64,000 nucleotides of DNA, from assembly GCA_049287005.1 (NCBI GenBank), contig JBAQEZ010000002.1:19268-83267 (forward strand). The letters are read 5' to 3'. The notes beneath the pieces were generated by a model. It was not told where the DNA came from and ran no database searches. It saw nothing but the letters and a program-made list of their open reading frames with translations. Source of the stretch: Candidatus Moraniibacteriota bacterium. Its GTDB lineage: Bacteria; Patescibacteriota; Minisyncoccia; Moranbacterales; UBA1568. The position numbers were made by a program, and so were the translations under genes. Below are positions 10,909-64,000 of this stretch, piece by piece (position 1 is the stretch's first letter; every line of letters starts with the position of its first letter).

Positions 10909-12564
<1,656 letters not shown>

Positions 12565-12602
12565 AGGTAAGGAGAAAGAACGCGGCAAGAGGGATCGGCA
12601 AA

Positions 12603-12626
12603 AAGAGGCGCATGCGCCTCTTTTTG
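12603..12626 (+). terminator. rho-independent terminator after groEL (AGAGGCG-catg-CGCCTCT + TTTTT)
   Basis: Hairpin followed by a T-tract. Confidence 0.55.
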
Positions 12627-12646
12627 TGTTATAATAAAAAAGAGAA

Positions 12647-14416
12647 GTGAAATACATACAAAAAATTATGCGTATCGAACTCGATCAGTTGAAAAGTTTT
12701 TTACTCGATTCCAATATTGTTCCCAAGGAAACCATCGAGCAAGTAGCAGCGGAAGCCAAGCAGAATAACAAGAATCTCGGTACGCTGCTCTTGGAAAAAA
12801 AATTGATTGAAGAGGCAGAACTTCAGAAGGTGTACGCTTATATTCTGGGTATTCCCTTTGTGGATCTTTCCAAGGAGACTATAGCTATCGAGGTTTTGCA
12901 AATCGTACCTGAACTGATCGCCAAAAAATATAACATCGTTTCTTTCGAGAAAAGCGGTGCCAATCTGAAGGTGGCGATGCTCAATCCTGAAGACCTGCAG
13001 ACGATTGATTTCATCAAGAAAAAAACCGGATTGAAAATAGTGCCGTGCCTGACTACGCGTGAGAGCATCCAGGTCGTGCTTCGCCAGTACGAGAAGAGCC
13101 TCAAGGCGGAATTCGGCGATATCCTGACTGGCGATATCAAGCCGGACGGCGAGAGTAACGATGATGAGGATTTGGAACAAGTGGCTGCCGGACTGCCGAT
13201 TATCCGTATCGTGGATACGCTGCTCAAACACGCTATTCTCGAATCGGCGAGTGATATCCATATTGAACCGGATGAGAAAGAGGTACATGTCCGGTATCGT
13301 ATCGACGGTGTGCTCCATGATGCCATGACCCTGCCCAAGGATGTGGCGGCTGGTCTCGTGGCGCGCATCAAGGTGCTTTCCAATCTGAAGCTTGATGAAC
13401 ATCGTCTGCCGCAGGACGGGCGCTTCAAAATCCAAAATGACGAATACAAGATTTCTTTCCGTGTCAGTATGCTGCCGGTTTTTGACGGGGAGAAAATCGT
13501 CATGCGTCTTTTGGATGAGACCTCCAAAGGGTTGACGCTGGAAAAGATGGGGCTGGGCGGATCGGCGTTGGAAGCGGTGCATCGCGAAATCAACAAACCG
13601 AACGGGATGATTCTCGTCACCGGCCCGACCGGATCCGGCAAGACCACCACCCTCTATACGGTGATGGATATCCTGAATACGCCGGAAGTCAATATCAGCA
13701 CCGTCGAGGATCCGGTCGAATATCGTATGCCGCGCGTGAATCAGACCCAGATCAACCCGAAGGTGGGCATGACGTTCGCTGCCGCCCTGCGGTCGCTCTT
13801 GCGCCAGGATCCGGATATCATCATGGTGGGTGAAATTCGTGATCAGGAAACGCTGGAGATCGCTATGCACGCGGCTATGACGGGGCATCTCGTGCTCTCG
13901 ACGCTGCATACCAACAACGCGGCCGCGACGCTGCCCCGTATGATCGATATGGGTGCGGAACCGTTTCTGATCGCCTCCACGGTCAATGTTATTATCGCGC
14001 AGCGCCTCATCCGTCGTTTGTGTGTCGAATGTCGAAAATCCTACACACTGGATAAAAAAGAGATCGAATCGCTTGCCAAATCGTATGATATCGAAAGTAT
14101 CTTCCAATTTCTCAAAAATGACCCAGTGGGTAAAAAATTCGTTGAAAAAGCGACCAGCTGGGACAATGTGACACTCTACAAGCCGACAGGCTGTGATCAG
14201 TGTGGCGGGGAAGGGTATCGTGGCCGTAATGGCATTTATGAAGTCCTTCCGATGGATACGAATATCCGCAAGCTGATTACGCAGTCAGCAACCACGGAAG
14301 AGCTGGAAAACGAAGCCAAGAAAAACGGTATGGCCACCATGGTAGAAGACGGCTTTCTTAAAATAGTGCAGGGGATTACTTCGCTGGAAGAAGTGATGCG
14401 CGCAACTAAAGAATAA
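12647..14416 (+). CDS. type II secretion / type IV pilus assembly ATPase (GspE/PilB family) with N-terminal GSPII_E_N domain
   Basis: Walker A GPTGSGKTTT, Asp box, His box, and the tetracysteine CVEC…CDQC zinc motif. Track start is GTG 12647; an in-frame ATG (MRIELDQ…) lies about 21 nt downstream. Confidence 0.85.
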   Translation: MKYIQKIMRIELDQLKSFLLDSNIVPKETIEQVAAEAKQNNKNLGTLLLEKKLIEEAELQKVYAYILGIPFVDLSKETIAIEVLQIVPELIAKKYNIVSFEKSGANLKVAMLNPEDLQTIDFIKKKTGLKIVPCLTTRESIQVVLRQYEKSLKAEFGDILTGDIKPDGESNDDEDLEQVAAGLPIIRIVDTLLKHAILESASDIHIEPDEKEVHVRYRIDGVLHDAMTLPKDVAAGLVARIKVLSNLKLDEHRLPQDGRFKIQNDEYKISFRVSMLPVFDGEKIVMRLLDETSKGLTLEKMGLGGSALEAVHREINKPNGMILVTGPTGSGKTTTLYTVMDILNTPEVNISTVEDPVEYRMPRVNQTQINPKVGMTFAAALRSLLRQDPDIIMVGEIRDQETLEIAMHAAMTGHLVLSTLHTNNAAATLPRMIDMGAEPFLIASTVNVIIAQRLIRRLCVECRKSYTLDKKEIESLAKSYDIESIFQFLKNDPVGKKFVEKATSWDNVTLYKPTGCDQCGGEGYRGRNGIYEVLPMDTNIRKLITQSATTEELENEAKKNGMATMVEDGFLKIVQGITSLEEVMRATKE

Positions 14417-59691: not shown

Positions 59692-60132
59692 TTGCTCAAT
59701 ACGAAAAATATGACTATACCACTCTGGAGCATCGTCACGCTCGTGGCGGAGATCGGCGTGACAGCGGCAGTGTTTCATATCATTTGGAAGGGCGTCGCGG
59801 AGGTGCGCTTCAACCGGCCATTGGCGTTCGGGGTGCTGGCTTATGAGGTGCTGTTCAATATCTCGTACATGCTGGGGCGCACGCTGGAACACGCCAATGA
59901 GAAGCCGGTTGTCGCGGAGAAATCCGGCGTGGCCGCGCTGGCTATCTTTCACGGCGTCTTTTCGCTCGTGATGTTCGTGGCGCTGGTAGCTTTTTTCTTG
60001 GTGGCGGCGAACCGCTATGCCAAGGGCGAGAATTTTTTCCTGCACCATCATCGTCTGACATCGGTCTTCCTCTCTGCTTGGGGGGTATCGGTGCTCTCGG
60101 GCGTTTTCTTCTTCGTCCGGCTCTATCTGTGA
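59692..60132 (+). CDS. hypothetical membrane protein (4 TM)
   Basis: Hydrophobicity pattern only. Confidence 0.4.
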   Translation: MLNTKNMTIPLWSIVTLVAEIGVTAAVFHIIWKGVAEVRFNRPLAFGVLAYEVLFNISYMLGRTLEHANEKPVVAEKSGVAALAIFHGVFSLVMFVALVAFFLVAANRYAKGENFFLHHHRLTSVFLSAWGVSVLSGVFFFVRLYL

Positions 60133-60339: not shown

Positions 60340-60741
60340 ATGAAGTCTTTGAAAAAACTCATTACTGGAAGCTTGATCATAGTCCTCGCATCACTTGTGG
60401 GTAGTTTCTGCATGCACCCGATGGTGGCGCAAGCGGCTCCTGGAGATATGGCGATGAGCGTATCGCCGTATGGCGCTGTCGCGGACACCGGGGGATGTCT
60501 TGTTCCGTCAGGCGATGCCATCTCCCACGCGATCAATACCTGTACTTCTGATTGTGTGACTCAGGTGCCGCAAACGATCAATGCCAAGAAAGTCGCCGTT
60601 GATAATGCGCAGAATTTCACGGTGCCTGTGTCTGGTGATCAGCAGGAGCAATTCTCAGAATTATTTTCAGAAGCGGTGAGTTTCTCTGGGACTCATCCTC
60701 CTTCCCCGGACATCCTTTTTTCCGTTTTCAAGAAAGAATAA
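60340..60741 (+). CDS. hypothetical secreted Cys-containing small protein
   Basis: Signal peptide (MKSLKKLITGSLIIVLASLVGSFC…AQA) then a Cys-bearing domain. Start trimmed within the track ORF. Confidence 0.35.
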   Translation: MKSLKKLITGSLIIVLASLVGSFCMHPMVAQAAPGDMAMSVSPYGAVADTGGCLVPSGDAISHAINTCTSDCVTQVPQTINAKKVAVDNAQNFTVPVSGDQQEQFSELFSEAVSFSGTHPPSPDILFSVFKKE

Positions 60742-60859
60742 AGTTTTTTCATGACGCTCTGCAAAAGATAAGAGGGATTATTATTGTTCTTTTGGGGCGT
60801 CAGGGTACCATTTCTTCGTATTTGAGAAATGGTTTTTTATGTGTAACAATACAAAATAT

Positions 60860-62692
60860 ATGAACAAGACAACTATCGATATCGCCGGGATGCATTGCCG
60901 CTCGTGCGAGATATTGATCGAAGACAAACTGACTCAGATTGCCGGTGTTCAGAGAGCCGTGGTGAATTATAAAAAAGGAACCGCGGAGATTCACTATGGA
61001 GCAAAACAGCTGAATATGAACGCTGTTGACCTTGCCGTGAGGGAGGCGGGATACTCTTTCGGACAGCAGAACGGAACGAAAGGGAAAGGAGCTCTTTTCA
61101 GTAAAAATCCTCAAGATTACAAAGATTTGTTTGTGGCCGCTCTTGTTCTCATCGGCCTCTATCTGATTCTGAAAAATCTCGGACTGACCAGTATCAATGT
61201 AGGCGGATCCGCGTCAAATCCTTCGAGCTTGCCGGTCATTTTTCTGGTCGGATTGACGGCAGGACTTTCGACATGTATGGCGCTGGTTGGCGGTTTGATT
61301 TTGGGTATTTCCGCTCGGCATGCCGAGTTGCATCCCGAGGCGACTCCGATGCAGAAATTCCGACCTCATTTATTTTTCAACGCAGGGCGTGTAGCGTCGT
61401 ATGCGCTCCTGGGCGGCACTCTCGGTTCGCTCGGATCACTCTTCCAGCTTTCTGGCGGTACTTTGGGTGTGTTGACTATCGTCGTGGGAGTGGTGATGCT
61501 GATGCTCGGGATGAAACTGATAGGAATATTTCCGAGAATGGAAAATGGCGGACTGATGCTTCCGAAGGGAATCAGTAGGTTTCTGGGAATCAAAAAGCAT
61601 CATGACAAAGAGTATAGCCACCGGGGCTCGATGATTACGGGTGCACTGACATTCTTCCTTCCCTGCGGATTCACGCAGGCGATGCAGCTCTACGCGATCA
61701 GCACCGGCAGTTTCACGCAGGGTGCGTTGATCATGGGAATATTCGCGCTCGGCACTGCGCCGGGATTGCTCGGTGTCGGTGGTCTGACCTCGGTGATCAA
61801 GGGAGTCTTCGCCCAGCGCTTTTTCAAGTTTGCCGGAATCCTCGTGATTTTCCTGGCAGTGTTCAACATTGCCAATGGATACAATCTGACGGGGTGGCAG
61901 TTGGGATCGGGCTCCGGTACGCAGAGCGCAGACACGCTTGTCGCGAATGATCCGAACGTGAAACTGGAAAATGGTGTGCAGGTTGTGCGTATGACCGAAG
62001 GGGCATCAGGATATGCACCGAACAAATTCACGATTCGCAAAGGCGTACCGGTCAGGTGGATCATCGATGCTCAATCGCCGTATTCGTGTGCCAGCAGCAT
62101 CATGATGTCCAAGTTCGGAATCAAGAAAAGCCTGAAGGCAGGTGAAAACGTCATCGAGTTCACGCCGACCGAGACCGGAGCTATTCCTTTCTCGTGTTCA
62201 ATGGGTATGTATACTGGTGTATTTACGGTTGTCGATAACCAAGGAGTCGGATCGGCAACGAGTACTTCAAATGCTGCAGGATCAGCCCCAACAGCAGGTT
62301 CTTGCGGCGGCGGAACAGGTGGGGGCTGCGGCGGATGTGGCGGTGGAAAGTCCGTGACACCAACAGTAGGATCGGTGCAAAGCGCGCCATCAACTGGTGG
62401 CGCCGTGACGCCAGCGACTGAACAGATCATCAATACGACGTATACCTACGCGAACGATATTCAGCCGAATACGTTCAAGGTAAAAGCCGGACAGCCGGTC
62501 AGGTTTGTCGTTGATGTGAAAGAAGACGGAGCAGGCTGTATGAGTACGATCATGATTCCCGGGCTCTCGAGCCAGCCACAATTGCTGCAAAAAGGCAGCA
62601 AGCTGGAAATGACGTTTACGCCGGAGAAGAAGGGTGTCTACAACATCACGTGCGCTATGGGCGTACCGCGAGGGACGCTGACTGTCGAATAA
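60860..62692 (+). CDS. multidomain copper-handling protein: HMA metal-binding domain + DsbD/CcdA-like (paired-Cys) multi-TM core + Gly/Cys-rich linker + two cupredoxin-like domains with Cys/Met (no His) site
   Basis: GMHCRSC (MxCxxC) HMA motif. TM core with …LSTCMALVGG… and …FFLPCGFTQAM…. Linker SCGGGTGGGCGGCGGGKS. Two beta-sandwich repeats ending SCSMGMYTGVFTVVD and TCAMGVPRGTLTVE. Confidence 0.6.
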   Translation: MNKTTIDIAGMHCRSCEILIEDKLTQIAGVQRAVVNYKKGTAEIHYGAKQLNMNAVDLAVREAGYSFGQQNGTKGKGALFSKNPQDYKDLFVAALVLIGLYLILKNLGLTSINVGGSASNPSSLPVIFLVGLTAGLSTCMALVGGLILGISARHAELHPEATPMQKFRPHLFFNAGRVASYALLGGTLGSLGSLFQLSGGTLGVLTIVVGVVMLMLGMKLIGIFPRMENGGLMLPKGISRFLGIKKHHDKEYSHRGSMITGALTFFLPCGFTQAMQLYAISTGSFTQGALIMGIFALGTAPGLLGVGGLTSVIKGVFAQRFFKFAGILVIFLAVFNIANGYNLTGWQLGSGSGTQSADTLVANDPNVKLENGVQVVRMTEGASGYAPNKFTIRKGVPVRWIIDAQSPYSCASSIMMSKFGIKKSLKAGENVIEFTPTETGAIPFSCSMGMYTGVFTVVDNQGVGSATSTSNAAGSAPTAGSCGGGTGGGCGGCGGGKSVTPTVGSVQSAPSTGGAVTPATEQIINTTYTYANDIQPNTFKVKAGQPVRFVVDVKEDGAGCMSTIMIPGLSSQPQLLQKGSKLEMTFTPEKKGVYNITCAMGVPRGTLTVE

Positions 62693-62709
62693 TCAATGAC
62701 TTCAATACT

Positions 62710-62916
62710 ATGAACGCACAAATCTTCAAAATCGACGGTTTTCATTGTGAGGCATGCGTGAAAGTGTCAACCATGAAAATCAAAAAAATCAGCGATGTAG
62801 AGGATGTCACTATCGCACCAGACGGAACAGCTACAGTATGCGCCAGTCGAAGCATAACACTGGATGAGATATCCGGAGCACTCGATGGATTGGGGTATAC
62901 GGTCGCGGCTCTCTAA
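62710..62916 (+). CDS. copZ: HMA-domain copper chaperone (CopZ-like)
   Basis: GFHCEAC metal-binding motif in a ferredoxin-like fold of about 68 aa. Confidence 0.65.
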   Translation: MNAQIFKIDGFHCEACVKVSTMKIKKISDVEDVTIAPDGTATVCASRSITLDEISGALDGLGYTVAAL

Positions 62917-62946
62917 TCACGTCTAACTCAACTTGAATGAATTCGT

Positions 62947-64000
62947 ATGAAAAAGAAACTAGCTTTGCAGATTACAGGGATGCACTGTGTATCGTGTGAG
63001 ATCTTGACCAAAGAGGAGTTGAGCACCCTGTCCGGTGTCAGTGATATCGCGATCGATGCGAAACTGGGCACAGGGGAACTCGTACTCGAGAACGAGATGA
63101 ATTCCCGGCAAGATGTTATCGATGCCATCAAACGGGCGGGATATGGCGCCACCGTGACCACTGAAGAGGCCGTGGTTTCGGTTGCGTCACCTGCACAGGA
63201 GAATGAGATCGTTGTCACTCACAATGAAGTGAAAAACGACAAGCCGATCAAAATGAAACTGGAAACGAAAATCGAAGCCGAAGGGCGTATATTGGAGGGT
63301 ACGGATGGACACCCGTATTTCGAAGGAAAAATAAAAAATGACCGGAGTGCGGAATTCGATATCCCTTCGGGCGATAATGAGGCAAAAAGTTTTATTGATC
63401 AACTGGTAAAGACGGCCAGCTTGTCTCATCTGTTCGACACGGTTGTCGGCGGCGGAAAAAATGGTGTCCGAGTGGAAGAGCAGCTTGCGGCGAGCGGGAC
63501 AACCTCGACAGCCAGCGTGTCTGCGAAAGCGGGGGATCCGAACAAGCGCGTGAGTCTGTCGCTGTTTGGGATGCATTGTTCTTCGTGCGCGAACATCATC
63601 GAAAAACAGCTGAAGAAGGTTCCTGGGGTCAAGCAGGCCAATGTGAACTTTTCCGCTGAAAAGGCATCTATCCTTTTTGATGAAAGCGTTTCAAGTACGA
63701 AAATGCTTATGGACGCGATCGCCAAAGTCGGATATCGCGGAGAAGAAGTGGATGCCAAGGATACGGAATACGAGACGCGGAAACGTGAGAAGGAAATTTC
63801 TTCCTATTTCAGCAAATTCCTGTTCAGTTTCATTCTGAGTCTTCCGATGCTCTACTTCATGCTGTTGGATTTTTTCACGTGGCTGCCGGGGGAGGCGGCA
63901 TTCGCGCCGTATATCGGTGTATTCTCGTTGCTTTTGACTATCCCGATACAGTTCATTATCGGAGCTGGCTTCTACAAGGGCATGTGGTCGTCACTGAAGA
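62947..64000 (+). CDS. copA: copper-translocating P1B-type ATPase, N-terminal part (two HMA domains separated by an insert of about 110 aa, then first TM helices); continues beyond the window
   Basis: GMHCVSCE and GMHCSSCA HMA motifs. Membrane helices begin near the end of the window. No stop before 64000. Confidence 0.8.
   Translation, partial: MKKKLALQITGMHCVSCEILTKEELSTLSGVSDIAIDAKLGTGELVLENEMNSRQDVIDAIKRAGYGATVTTEEAVVSVASPAQENEIVVTHNEVKNDKPIKMKLETKIEAEGRILEGTDGHPYFEGKIKNDRSAEFDIPSGDNEAKSFIDQLVKTASLSHLFDTVVGGGKNGVRVEEQLAASGTTSTASVSAKAGDPNKRVSLSLFGMHCSSCANIIEKQLKKVPGVKQANVNFSAEKASILFDESVSSTKMLMDAIAKVGYRGEEVDAKDTEYETRKREKEISSYFSKFLFSFILSLPMLYFMLLDFFTWLPGEAAFAPYIGVFSLLLTIPIQFIIGAGFYKGMWSSLK

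Follow-up and report, generated by a model that had tools for sequence, protein, structure and literature searches.

A gene joining HMA, DsbD_2 and CupA-type cupredoxin domains precedes CopZ and CopA in a Candidatus Moraniibacteriota bacterium

A copper locus with a membrane-spanning fusion gene

A three-gene copper locus was characterised at the end of a 64,000-nt stretch of DNA from a Candidatus Moraniibacteriota bacterium (the window, whose positions are used throughout). The first gene (gene 1) joins an HMA domain, a transmembrane (TM) core of the DsbD_2 family and two CupA-type cupredoxins, and is followed by a CopZ-like chaperone and a CopA pump. We propose that the product of gene 1 works on both sides of the membrane as a copper accessory to the CopA efflux pump, in the manner of a Cu(I) thiolate relay, and give this reading a probability of roughly 45%. 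The architecture of the locus is real and no chance pattern, as the database search scored more than 4,400 homologues and the 120 best of them are all built in the same way. Schemes of copper efflux in single-membrane bacteria usually run from CopZ to CopA and show nothing outside. The gene 1 family is predicted to put a Cys-based Cu(I) site on the outer face and to connect it across the membrane with a chaperone domain in the cytoplasm.

The open reading frame (ORF) of gene 1 spans 617 aa (60839..62692, +). An identical protein at NCBI, from a Candidatus Moraniibacteriota metagenome-assembled genome (MAG; GCA_049304235.1, contig JBAQNY010000023.1), has 610 aa, and the start was therefore placed at M8, position 60860. 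Residue numbers refer to the 610-aa protein unless stated, while Pfam coordinates keep the 617-aa ORF numbering. Only 17 nt separate gene 1 from CopZ and 30 nt separate CopZ from CopA, which argues for one operon. The order of fusion gene, CopZ-like gene and P1B ATPase within a single operon, as given in the initial annotation, is borne out by these gaps, and the motifs it had quoted are all present in gene 1 (GMHCRSC, LSTCMALVGG, FLPCGFTQ, SCGGGTGGGCGGCGGGKS, SCASSIMMS/SCSMGMY and GCMSTIMIP/TCAMGV). The CopA gene starts at 62947, not 62944, and reaches 981 aa in full length on the source contig (L001). Its translation contains CPC (TM6), YN (TM7), MxxSS (TM8) and DKTGT, which places it among the P1B-1 Cu(I)/Ag(I) ATPases. 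The features of the locus are listed in Table 1.

Table 1. Positions of the features of the copper locus in the window, with the evidence for each.
Feature	Position	Strand	Details and evidence
Inverted repeat ACCATTTCT-N9-AGAAATGGT	60807..60833	+	Perfect repeat; candidate operator or 5' hairpin
Gene 1: HMA, TM0, 6-TM DsbD_2 core, CupA-type cupredoxin, Gly/Cys linker, second CupA-type cupredoxin	60860..62692	+	610 aa; ORF list, Pfam, NCBI protein, AlphaFold2 (AF2)
HMA domain, GMHCRSC (predicted cytoplasmic)	60872..61054	+	Pfam HMA residues 12-72 (617-aa numbering), E 1.4e-11
Extra helix TM0	61124..61186	+	Hydropathy, Lys plus Arg (K+R) counts; absent from four homologues that start at TM1
DsbD_2 (PF13386) 6-TM core	61238..61861	+	Pfam residues 134-341 (617-aa numbering), E 1.1e-33
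TM1 cysteine C139, motif STCM	61274..61276	+	119/120 close homologues; 124/125 diverse rows; 6/6 non-Patescibacteria homologues
TM4 cysteine C269, motif LPCG	61664..61666	+	120/120 close homologues; 125/125 diverse rows; 6/6 non-Patescibacteria homologues
Cupredoxin 1, CupA-type, ligands C410, C446, M448, M450 (C...CxMxM)	61961..62236	+	PDB sequence matches, Foldseek, conservation
Cys motif C-x7-C-x2-C in disordered Gly-rich linker	62303..62338	+	81-93% conserved in 120 close homologues; predicted local distance difference test (pLDDT) 27-47
Cupredoxin 2, CupA-type, C560, C598, M600	62423..62689	+	Pfam Cupredoxin_1 529-616 (617-aa numbering); pLDDT 89-95
Gene 2: free CopZ-like HMA chaperone, GFHCEAC	62710..62916	+	68 aa; Pfam HMA 28.9 bits against a cut-off of 24.8
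Gene 3: P1B-1 type CopA, ended by the window edge	62947..64000	+	Pfam E1-E2_ATPase, Hydrolase, HMA x2
Insert between the CopA HMA domains, CopA residues 71-200	63157..63546	+	~130 aa; conserved core of ~75 aa and low-complexity tail

The outer repeats resemble CupA

Pfam Cupredoxin_1 matched gene 1 in two stretches (E 4e-18). Against PDB sequences, cupredoxin 1 matched CupA of S. pneumoniae (2MRY/4F2E, E 1.6e-12) and the metal-binding domain (MBD) of pneumococcal CopA (4F2F, E 2.4e-12). The ligands fell in register, SC...SCSMGM aligning with PC...ACGMNM of CupA, and correspond to its Cys74, Cys111, Met113 and Met115. Foldseek likewise ranked 4F2F and 4F2E at the top, with TM-scores of 0.85-0.86 and a root mean square deviation of 1.3 Å over 92-93 columns (34-36% identity). 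Cupredoxin 2 aligned by BLASTP with domain 1 (E 2e-12) and with CupA (E 1e-8), again with the ligands in register; it retains both Cys and the first Met but has Val in the place of the second. The Cys/Cys/Met set is essentially invariant in the 124 cluster representatives from which a diverse alignment of 125 rows was built, and in cupredoxin 1 the whole set of four is invariant. There is no His at the ligand positions, and the His-Cys-His-Met set of type-1 blue copper is therefore missing. Sequence comparison and the structural models thus identify the outer repeats as predicted CupA-type Cu(I) cupredoxins and not as blue-copper domains. The initial annotation had guessed that Cys and Met in place of His would form Cu(I) sites, a guess that the CupA register and the Foldseek result support, and the C-terminal repeats, which might have turned out to have a non-metal fold, came out as the CupA-type metal-binding fold.

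A precedent for a relay is offered by CupA itself, a membrane-tethered Cu(I) chaperone for CopA (PMC7558416). The gene 1 cupredoxins share with CupA and the pneumococcal CopA MBD the fold, the Cu(I) ligand set Cys...Cys-x-Met-x-Met, the attachment to the membrane and the position of the gene next to copA. CupA, however, is a single domain on one N-terminal helix and is cytoplasmic (PMC7558416), whereas the gene 1 domains are C-terminal to a 7-TM protein, are predicted to lie outside, frequently come as a pair and occur in at least five phyla. The partner pump differs as well: pneumococcal CopA carries a cupredoxin domain (PMC7558416), whereas the CopA of the window has ordinary HMA domains and no cupredoxin. 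In a 2020 review CupA was reported from a few streptococcal species only (PMC7558416), in contrast to the present family, in which the CupA fold appears as a widespread extracytoplasmic module.

Database records give the family other names. JGI uses 'sulfite exporter TauE/SafE/plastocyanin domain-containing protein/copper chaperone CopZ' and NCBI uses 'sulfite exporter TauE/SafE'. Taken literally, these labels would make gene 1 a TauE/SafE exporter of sulfite or organosulfonates, its 'plastocyanin' domains blue-copper electron carriers, or both, which we regard as highly improbable. Besides the names themselves, the Pfam Cupredoxin_1 match and weak NCBIfam matches to plastocyanin (15.5 bits against a cut-off of 87.9) and nitrosocyanin (32.4 against 142.9) speak for the labels. 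The type-1 copper His, however, give way to the CupA Cys/Met set, and the best sequence and structure matches are CupA and the CopA MBD. DsbD_2 was the sole transporter family found in Pfam at E<=1, and the TauE/SafE model gave no match in Pfam at E<=1 with the whole protein, in Pfam at E<=10 with the core alone, or in NCBIfam at E<=0.1. The context also argues against the labels, as it consists of HMA, CopZ and CopA and has no sulfur-metabolism gene. Such names could mislead metabolic reconstructions of Patescibacteria that read the cupredoxins as electron carriers.

The initial annotation had called the architecture undescribed. This is so for experiments and papers: no paper was found that characterises any gene 1 family member or notes the family in Patescibacteria, although most subscription journals lay outside the search and the absence is no proof. 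For databases it does not stand, as the domain-level annotation at JGI already exists. The family consists of known parts, is already in databases, and is misnamed and unstudied.

The membrane core and its predicted topology

The N-terminal domain of gene 1 scored 45 bits against the Pfam HMA model (threshold 24.8) and carries the GMxCxxC motif of the HMA/CopZ group. Its CxxC is present in 117/120 close homologues (the top 120) and in 120 of the 125 rows of the diverse alignment, and the domain was modelled by AF2 with a pLDDT of 86-90. Among NCBIfam models it scored best against MerTP_fusion and CopZ, below their cut-offs, which for the CopZ equivalog models is as expected for a fused domain.

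The membrane core belongs to DsbD_2, with 117.2 bits against a gathering threshold of 24.9 and a match covering model positions 2-198 of 199; searched alone, it gave E 1.3e-34 and 120.3 bits. Seven hydrophobic helices were identified in gene 1, namely TM0 and the six helices of the core. The AF2 model of the core reached a pLDDT of 79.4 and a predicted template-modelling score of 0.74. The full-length model, built from 64 homologues, had a mean pLDDT of 77.8, with the HMA domain, the helices and both cupredoxins modelled confidently. The cysteine pair of TM1 and TM4 is conserved in the homologues to the extent given in Table 1, as the initial annotation would require. In TM4, Pro-Cys-Gly occurs in 125/125 rows (P268 in 124/125), while the TM1 motif reads S-T/S-C-M/A and lacks Pro, so Pro-Cys is not found at both cysteines. 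Other polar residues of the core are near-invariant (R177 124/125, Q276 123/125, T299 124/125), and the TM methionines M213 and M292 are kept in 91% and 85% of the diverse alignment. An internal 3+3 TM duplication, a feature of CcdA/DsbD and the LysE superfamily, was looked for by aligning the profile of TM1-3 with that of TM4-6 by hhalign; the two Cys were aligned, and the E-value of 0.12 (global) was not significant.

The positive-inside count averaged over the 120 close homologues gave 15.9 K+R in the predicted inside loops and 1.4 in the outside loops. In Mycolicibacterium, Tsukamurella, Streptomyces and Deinococcus the homologous protein begins with TM1, and both TM0 and an N-terminal domain are missing. 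Acetoanaerobium has a homologue with HMA and TM0, and that of Chlorohelix has TM0 with an N-terminal extension that is not an HMA domain. Since TM0 occurs only together with an N-terminal extension, the core itself would have both termini outside, and TM0 would serve to keep the N-terminal domain in the cytoplasm. The predicted topology thus has seven TM helices with the N-terminus in and the C-terminus out, the HMA domain inside and the cupredoxins outside. By the K+R counts and the TM0 pattern, the soluble domains do not all fall on one side, and the structural statements on gene 1 in the initial annotation all hold when set against Pfam, AF2, the PDB matches and the topology counts.

The redox cysteines of DsbD and CcdA lie in TM1 and TM4, in Pro-Cys motifs. 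Gene 1 resembles CcdA, DsbD and ScsB (Transporter Classification 5.A.1; Pfam DsbD, of the same clan as DsbD_2) in its 6-TM core with one conserved Cys each in TM1 and TM4, in the predicted outside position of both termini and in the fusion of soluble domains on the outside. The differences are that the core matches PF13386 and not PF02683, that TM1 lacks Pro-Cys, that the cytoplasmic partner is an HMA domain and that the outer domains are cupredoxins instead of thioredoxin folds. The DsbD family comprises electron carriers for which roles in resistance to copper and mercury have been reported, within a superfamily that consists mostly of metal and amino-acid carriers (PMC4608589), and family members have been linked to copper tolerance (PMC4608589; PMC7785015). 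PF13386 may also include 'UreH-like' predicted nickel permeases, a link that would speak for a metal carrier and is given no weight here.

This anatomy raises the alternative that gene 1 conducts reductant. The TM1/TM4 pair would carry electrons outward, as in CcdA/DsbD, and so keep the outer CupA-type thiolates and the linker CxxC reduced; the reduced outer domains could then bind Cu(I) pumped by CopA, or reduce Cu(II), and the fused HMA would be a membrane-tethered CopA chaperone or a copper-sensing regulatory domain. We regard this as the main rival to the relay and as somewhat less probable than it. The assignment to DsbD_2, the positions of the two cysteines and the Pro-Cys of TM4 all fit it, as does the conserved C-x2-C of the linker. 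Extracellular Cys-based Cu(I) sites need a reductant, for which the Sco/TlpA/CcdA pathway is a known precedent. CupA cysteines can reduce Cu(II) in vitro (PMC7558416), and ScsB-type DsbD homologues act in copper tolerance according to work cited in PMC7785015. The missing Pro-Cys of TM1 counts against an electron conduit, as do two structural comparisons: searching the PDB with the family profile did not retrieve any chain of CcdA or DsbD, and Foldseek gave no significant match to the model of the core. The outer domains, moreover, do not have the thioredoxin fold that all known CcdA/DsbD substrates have.

Distribution and genomic neighbourhood of the family

A full HMMER scan for the family with TM0, core and cupredoxin 1, counted in clusters of 50% identity, returned 963 at E<=1e-30 and 2,399 at E<=1e-10. 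Scanning one genome per species found at least 589 genomes with the gene 1 family, from which 80 loci were kept; the informative record titles among them name Parcubacteria, Microgenomates, Saccharibacteria, Gracilibacteria, WWE3 and Berkelbacteria, all lineages of Patescibacteria. With tblastn, core and cupredoxin were also detected in plasmid records of Bacillota, Chloroflexota, Deinococcota and Actinomycetota, and the family thus occurs in at least five phyla. One cupredoxin is the commonest architecture among the representatives, so that the two-cupredoxin form of the window is a sub-variant; forms with three exist. Homologues with the TM Cys pair and without the outer Cys ligands would speak against an electron conduit; those found were fragments or rare variants and carry no weight either way.

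In Patescibacteria the family is tied to CopA. Of the 65 Patescibacteria loci whose downstream sequence was long enough to score, 59 have a co-oriented CPC/DKTGT ATPase that starts within the next 1.5 kb, and the family may therefore be a missing part of the copper-efflux pathway. Two configurations dominate: in 22 loci, as in the window, two cupredoxins go with a free CopZ and a two-HMA CopA, and in 21 a single cupredoxin goes with a one-HMA CopA and a free CopZ is missing. The counts of metal modules thus rise together across the loci, and this scaling, together with the adjacency of CopA, argues that gene 1 is coupled to copper efflux. A free small HMA gene stands between the gene 1 homologue and the downstream ATPase in about half of the related loci.

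Outside Patescibacteria, five annotated loci (Mycolicibacterium, Tsukamurella, Streptomyces, Chlorohelix and Deinococcus) have a DsbD_2-cupredoxin gene without HMA, and in all five a free HMA gene lacking a signal peptide follows immediately 3'. No P-type ATPase is annotated in the examined stretch of three of them. Being fused in one lineage and adjacent in others, in the manner of a Rosetta stone, the HMA appears to be tied to the membrane core itself and not only to CopA. This bears on the electron conduit described above, as every lineage examined, even where no ATPase is near, has a fused or neighbouring HMA domain as the cytoplasmic partner, and thioredoxin, which usually donates to CcdA/DsbD, is not part of the conserved module. 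On the other side, three of the four actinobacterial loci have genes for TlpA-family disulfide reductases nearby (Mycolicibacterium, Streptomyces, where ResB and CcsB accompany them, and Tsukamurella), which would suit thiol redox chemistry.

A third reading reverses the direction of the relay. The outer cupredoxins would capture Cu(I), or Hg(II)/Ag(I), and pass it inward through the Cys pair to the HMA domain and CopZ, supplying copper or clearing the cell surface, with CopA then controlling the cytoplasmic level. MerP/MerT/MerA is an Hg(II) thiolate relay that runs inward with the same kinds of ligand, and a relay by ligand exchange is reversible in principle. The homologue on a Tsukamurella plasmid (L087) lies beside merA and a multicopper oxidase gene, and that on a Deinococcus plasmid (L085) lies near merB and a MerR regulator; judging from these neighbours, the metal handled by some family members may be Hg(II), alone or besides Cu(I). 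We nevertheless find an inward relay unlikely for the family. The Patescibacteria gene is almost always directly upstream of a Cu(I) exporter and co-oriented with it, which would make import a futile cycle, and no cuproenzyme or mercuric reductase is linked to it in the Patescibacteria loci. Among the neighbouring genes in the stretches from Chlorohelix and Deinococcus is a two-component sensor/regulator pair, which, if metal-responsive, suits detoxification rather than uptake.

Several further features of the loci were recorded. In L005, a Parcubacteria MAG, the pair of fusion gene and CopA recurs a few kb downstream: another, divergent fusion gene (11828-14202; one cupredoxin; 38% identity) again precedes a CopA-like gene, a tandem duplication of the whole module. 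A second P-type ATPase, only 38-46% identical to the CopA of the window, is found on either strand within a few kb of the module in L011, L012, L014, L016, L018, L019, L022, L025, L042, L043, L064, L069, L075 and L081, and many Patescibacteria therefore have two P1B pumps at one locus. L070 and L072 (Gracilibacteria, a Patescibacteria MAG) gave full-length tblastn matches to the fusion gene that are broken into short ORFs under translation table 11. Gracilibacteria have been reported to read UGA as a sense codon; the broken ORFs would be expected in that case, and counts based on ORFs undercount such lineages. L009, L015, L018, L019, L027, L028 and other CAY*/CAZ* records with a Patescibacteria-type operon are titled 'uncultured Gammaproteobacteria', 'Pseudomonadales' or 'Bdellovibrionales', and their gene content and identity suggest that these titles are placeholders or wrong taxonomy.

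A proposed relay model for Cu(I)

In the proposed relay, Cu(I) from CopZ or from the fused HMA domain would move to the membrane Cys pair by ligand exchange. The core would alternate access like its CcdA/DsbD relatives and pass Cu(I) to the outer cupredoxin or cupredoxins and to the flexible Cys-rich linker. The outer domains may also take up Cu(I) released by CopA, and the exported Cu(I) would be held at the surface without re-entry. The net direction would be outward, for detoxification, with the outer sink, and possibly proton coupling via R177 and Q276, as the driving force. The idea of a relay moving copper across the membrane, which the initial annotation had put forward, is plausible on this anatomy, and the same anatomy fits a CcdA-like electron conduit. 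Metal is favoured over electrons because the conserved cytoplasmic partner is an HMA domain and not a thioredoxin, which is the strongest argument available. The choice between metal relay and electron conduit is directly testable with a small and well-defined protein.

Several points weigh against a Cu(I) relay. No experimental characterisation of any family member was found in the literature. The TM1/TM4 cysteines and the Pro-Cys of TM4 occupy the redox-pair positions of CcdA/DsbD, and electron transfer is equally natural for the fold; the TlpA-family genes of the actinobacterial loci hint in the same direction. The cytoplasmic-loop His residues and several TM Met look like a path for metal in Patescibacteria, but conservation does not extend to other phyla. 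An ATP-independent exporter placed beside an ATP-driven one also needs an energy source, which here is a guess.

A more specific version of the relay was also considered, which we judge less likely than not. The DsbD_2 core would be an ATP-independent Cu(I) carrier of a new kind, using CcdA-type alternating access, with the TM1/TM4 Cys pair carrying metal instead of a disulfide from the HMA domain to the CupA-type cupredoxins at the surface. Together with CopA it would form the core copper efflux of Patescibacteria, and it would be present in several other phyla as well.

Comparison with known metal relays and related systems

In the MerP/MerT/MerA system (with NmerA) and the MerTP fusions, as in gene 1, an HMA domain is combined with membrane cysteines and with a thiol acceptor at the opposite face; metal moves there by ligand exchange, as it would in the proposed relay. 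The membrane fold, however, is unrelated, and the MerTP_fusion model matches the HMA part alone (profile positions 115-184, 45.9 bits against 180). The HMA domain of gene 1 is predicted inside and not in the periplasm, its context is copper efflux and its likely direction is outward.

CusF, CopL and CueP have been proposed as outer-side Cu(I) acceptors after export by CopA. Gene 1 would resemble them in taking up Cu(I) on the outer side of P1B ATPases. These proteins, in contrast, are soluble or lipoproteins, use mostly Met/His/Trp ligands and have neither a membrane Cys pair nor a cytoplasmic HMA domain.

COG2836 of Firmicutes (HMA, DsbD_2 and DUF2318) is built on the same HMA-DsbD_2 chassis but has DUF2318 outside in place of a CupA-type cupredoxin, and is likewise uncharacterised. 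Comparative genomics has led to the prediction that it is part of the copper-responsive CsoR regulon in gut Firmicutes (PMC4938975), the only close result that the literature gave.

The insert between the HMA domains of CopA

The initial annotation had noted an insert of about 110 aa between the two HMA domains of CopA. The insert is real and recurs in related CopAs, but its length was measured as ~130 aa between the domain boundaries, with the two CxxC motifs 197 aa apart. Related CopAs with two HMA domains have their CxxC motifs 101 to 207 aa apart. Among the 33 such CopAs in related loci, 19 have the insert core in common (inserts of more than 100 aa, Patescibacteria), while the others have shorter spacers. 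The core follows the pattern …K-x-K-x-E-x-x-x-x-A-E-G…G-x-P-Y-F-E-G-K…A-E-F-x-x-P…L-F-D and has no cluster of Cys, His or Met. The insert gave no Pfam match at E<=10, and a word-indexed homologue search with the 89-aa core found nothing. A degenerate HMA domain was considered and rejected, as a home-built HMA profile gave noise alone. Our guess is that the insert is a regulatory or docking module.

The upstream region

Upstream of gene 1 lies an inverted repeat with 9-nt arms and a 9-nt spacer, followed by a T run and located 26 nt 5' of the start codon. It overlaps a weak promoter-like site and was also marked by the scan as terminator-like, and it could be an operator or an attenuator. Its arms CCATTTC...GAAATGG recur with a different spacer upstream of the homologous gene in L068; apart from this match, the upstream palindromes are not common to the 72 loci compared. 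A CsoR-like motif scan of the whole window found no metal regulator gene. Palindromes 5' of the fusion gene were also seen in the L035, L040, L056 and L064 regions (AATACCTACTAC-N5-GTAGTAGGTATT, TACCTAC-N9-GTAGGTA and CTCCCCCT…AGGGGGAG), which may resemble CsoR-type operators.

Directly 5' of gene 1 is a 133-aa ORF (60340-60741, +) with a hydrophobic, signal-peptide-like N-terminus ending in AQA-AP, a Met/His-rich stretch CMHPMVAQAAPGDMAMS and several Cys. Its Pfam match to DUF6153 is weak (E 0.009) and below the cut-off. Homologues with 45-50% identity occupy the equivalent position in L068 and L073, both Moraniibacteriota, and are not found in the other 78 loci. Its composition suggests that the ORF may encode a small secreted metal-binding protein. 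Further upstream, a 146-aa multi-TM ORF (59692-60132, +) has a weak DUF420 match (E 0.039) and is 72% identical to an ORF at the matching relative position in L068, so that a syntenic block reaches upstream of the copper operon in the Moraniibacteriota lineage.

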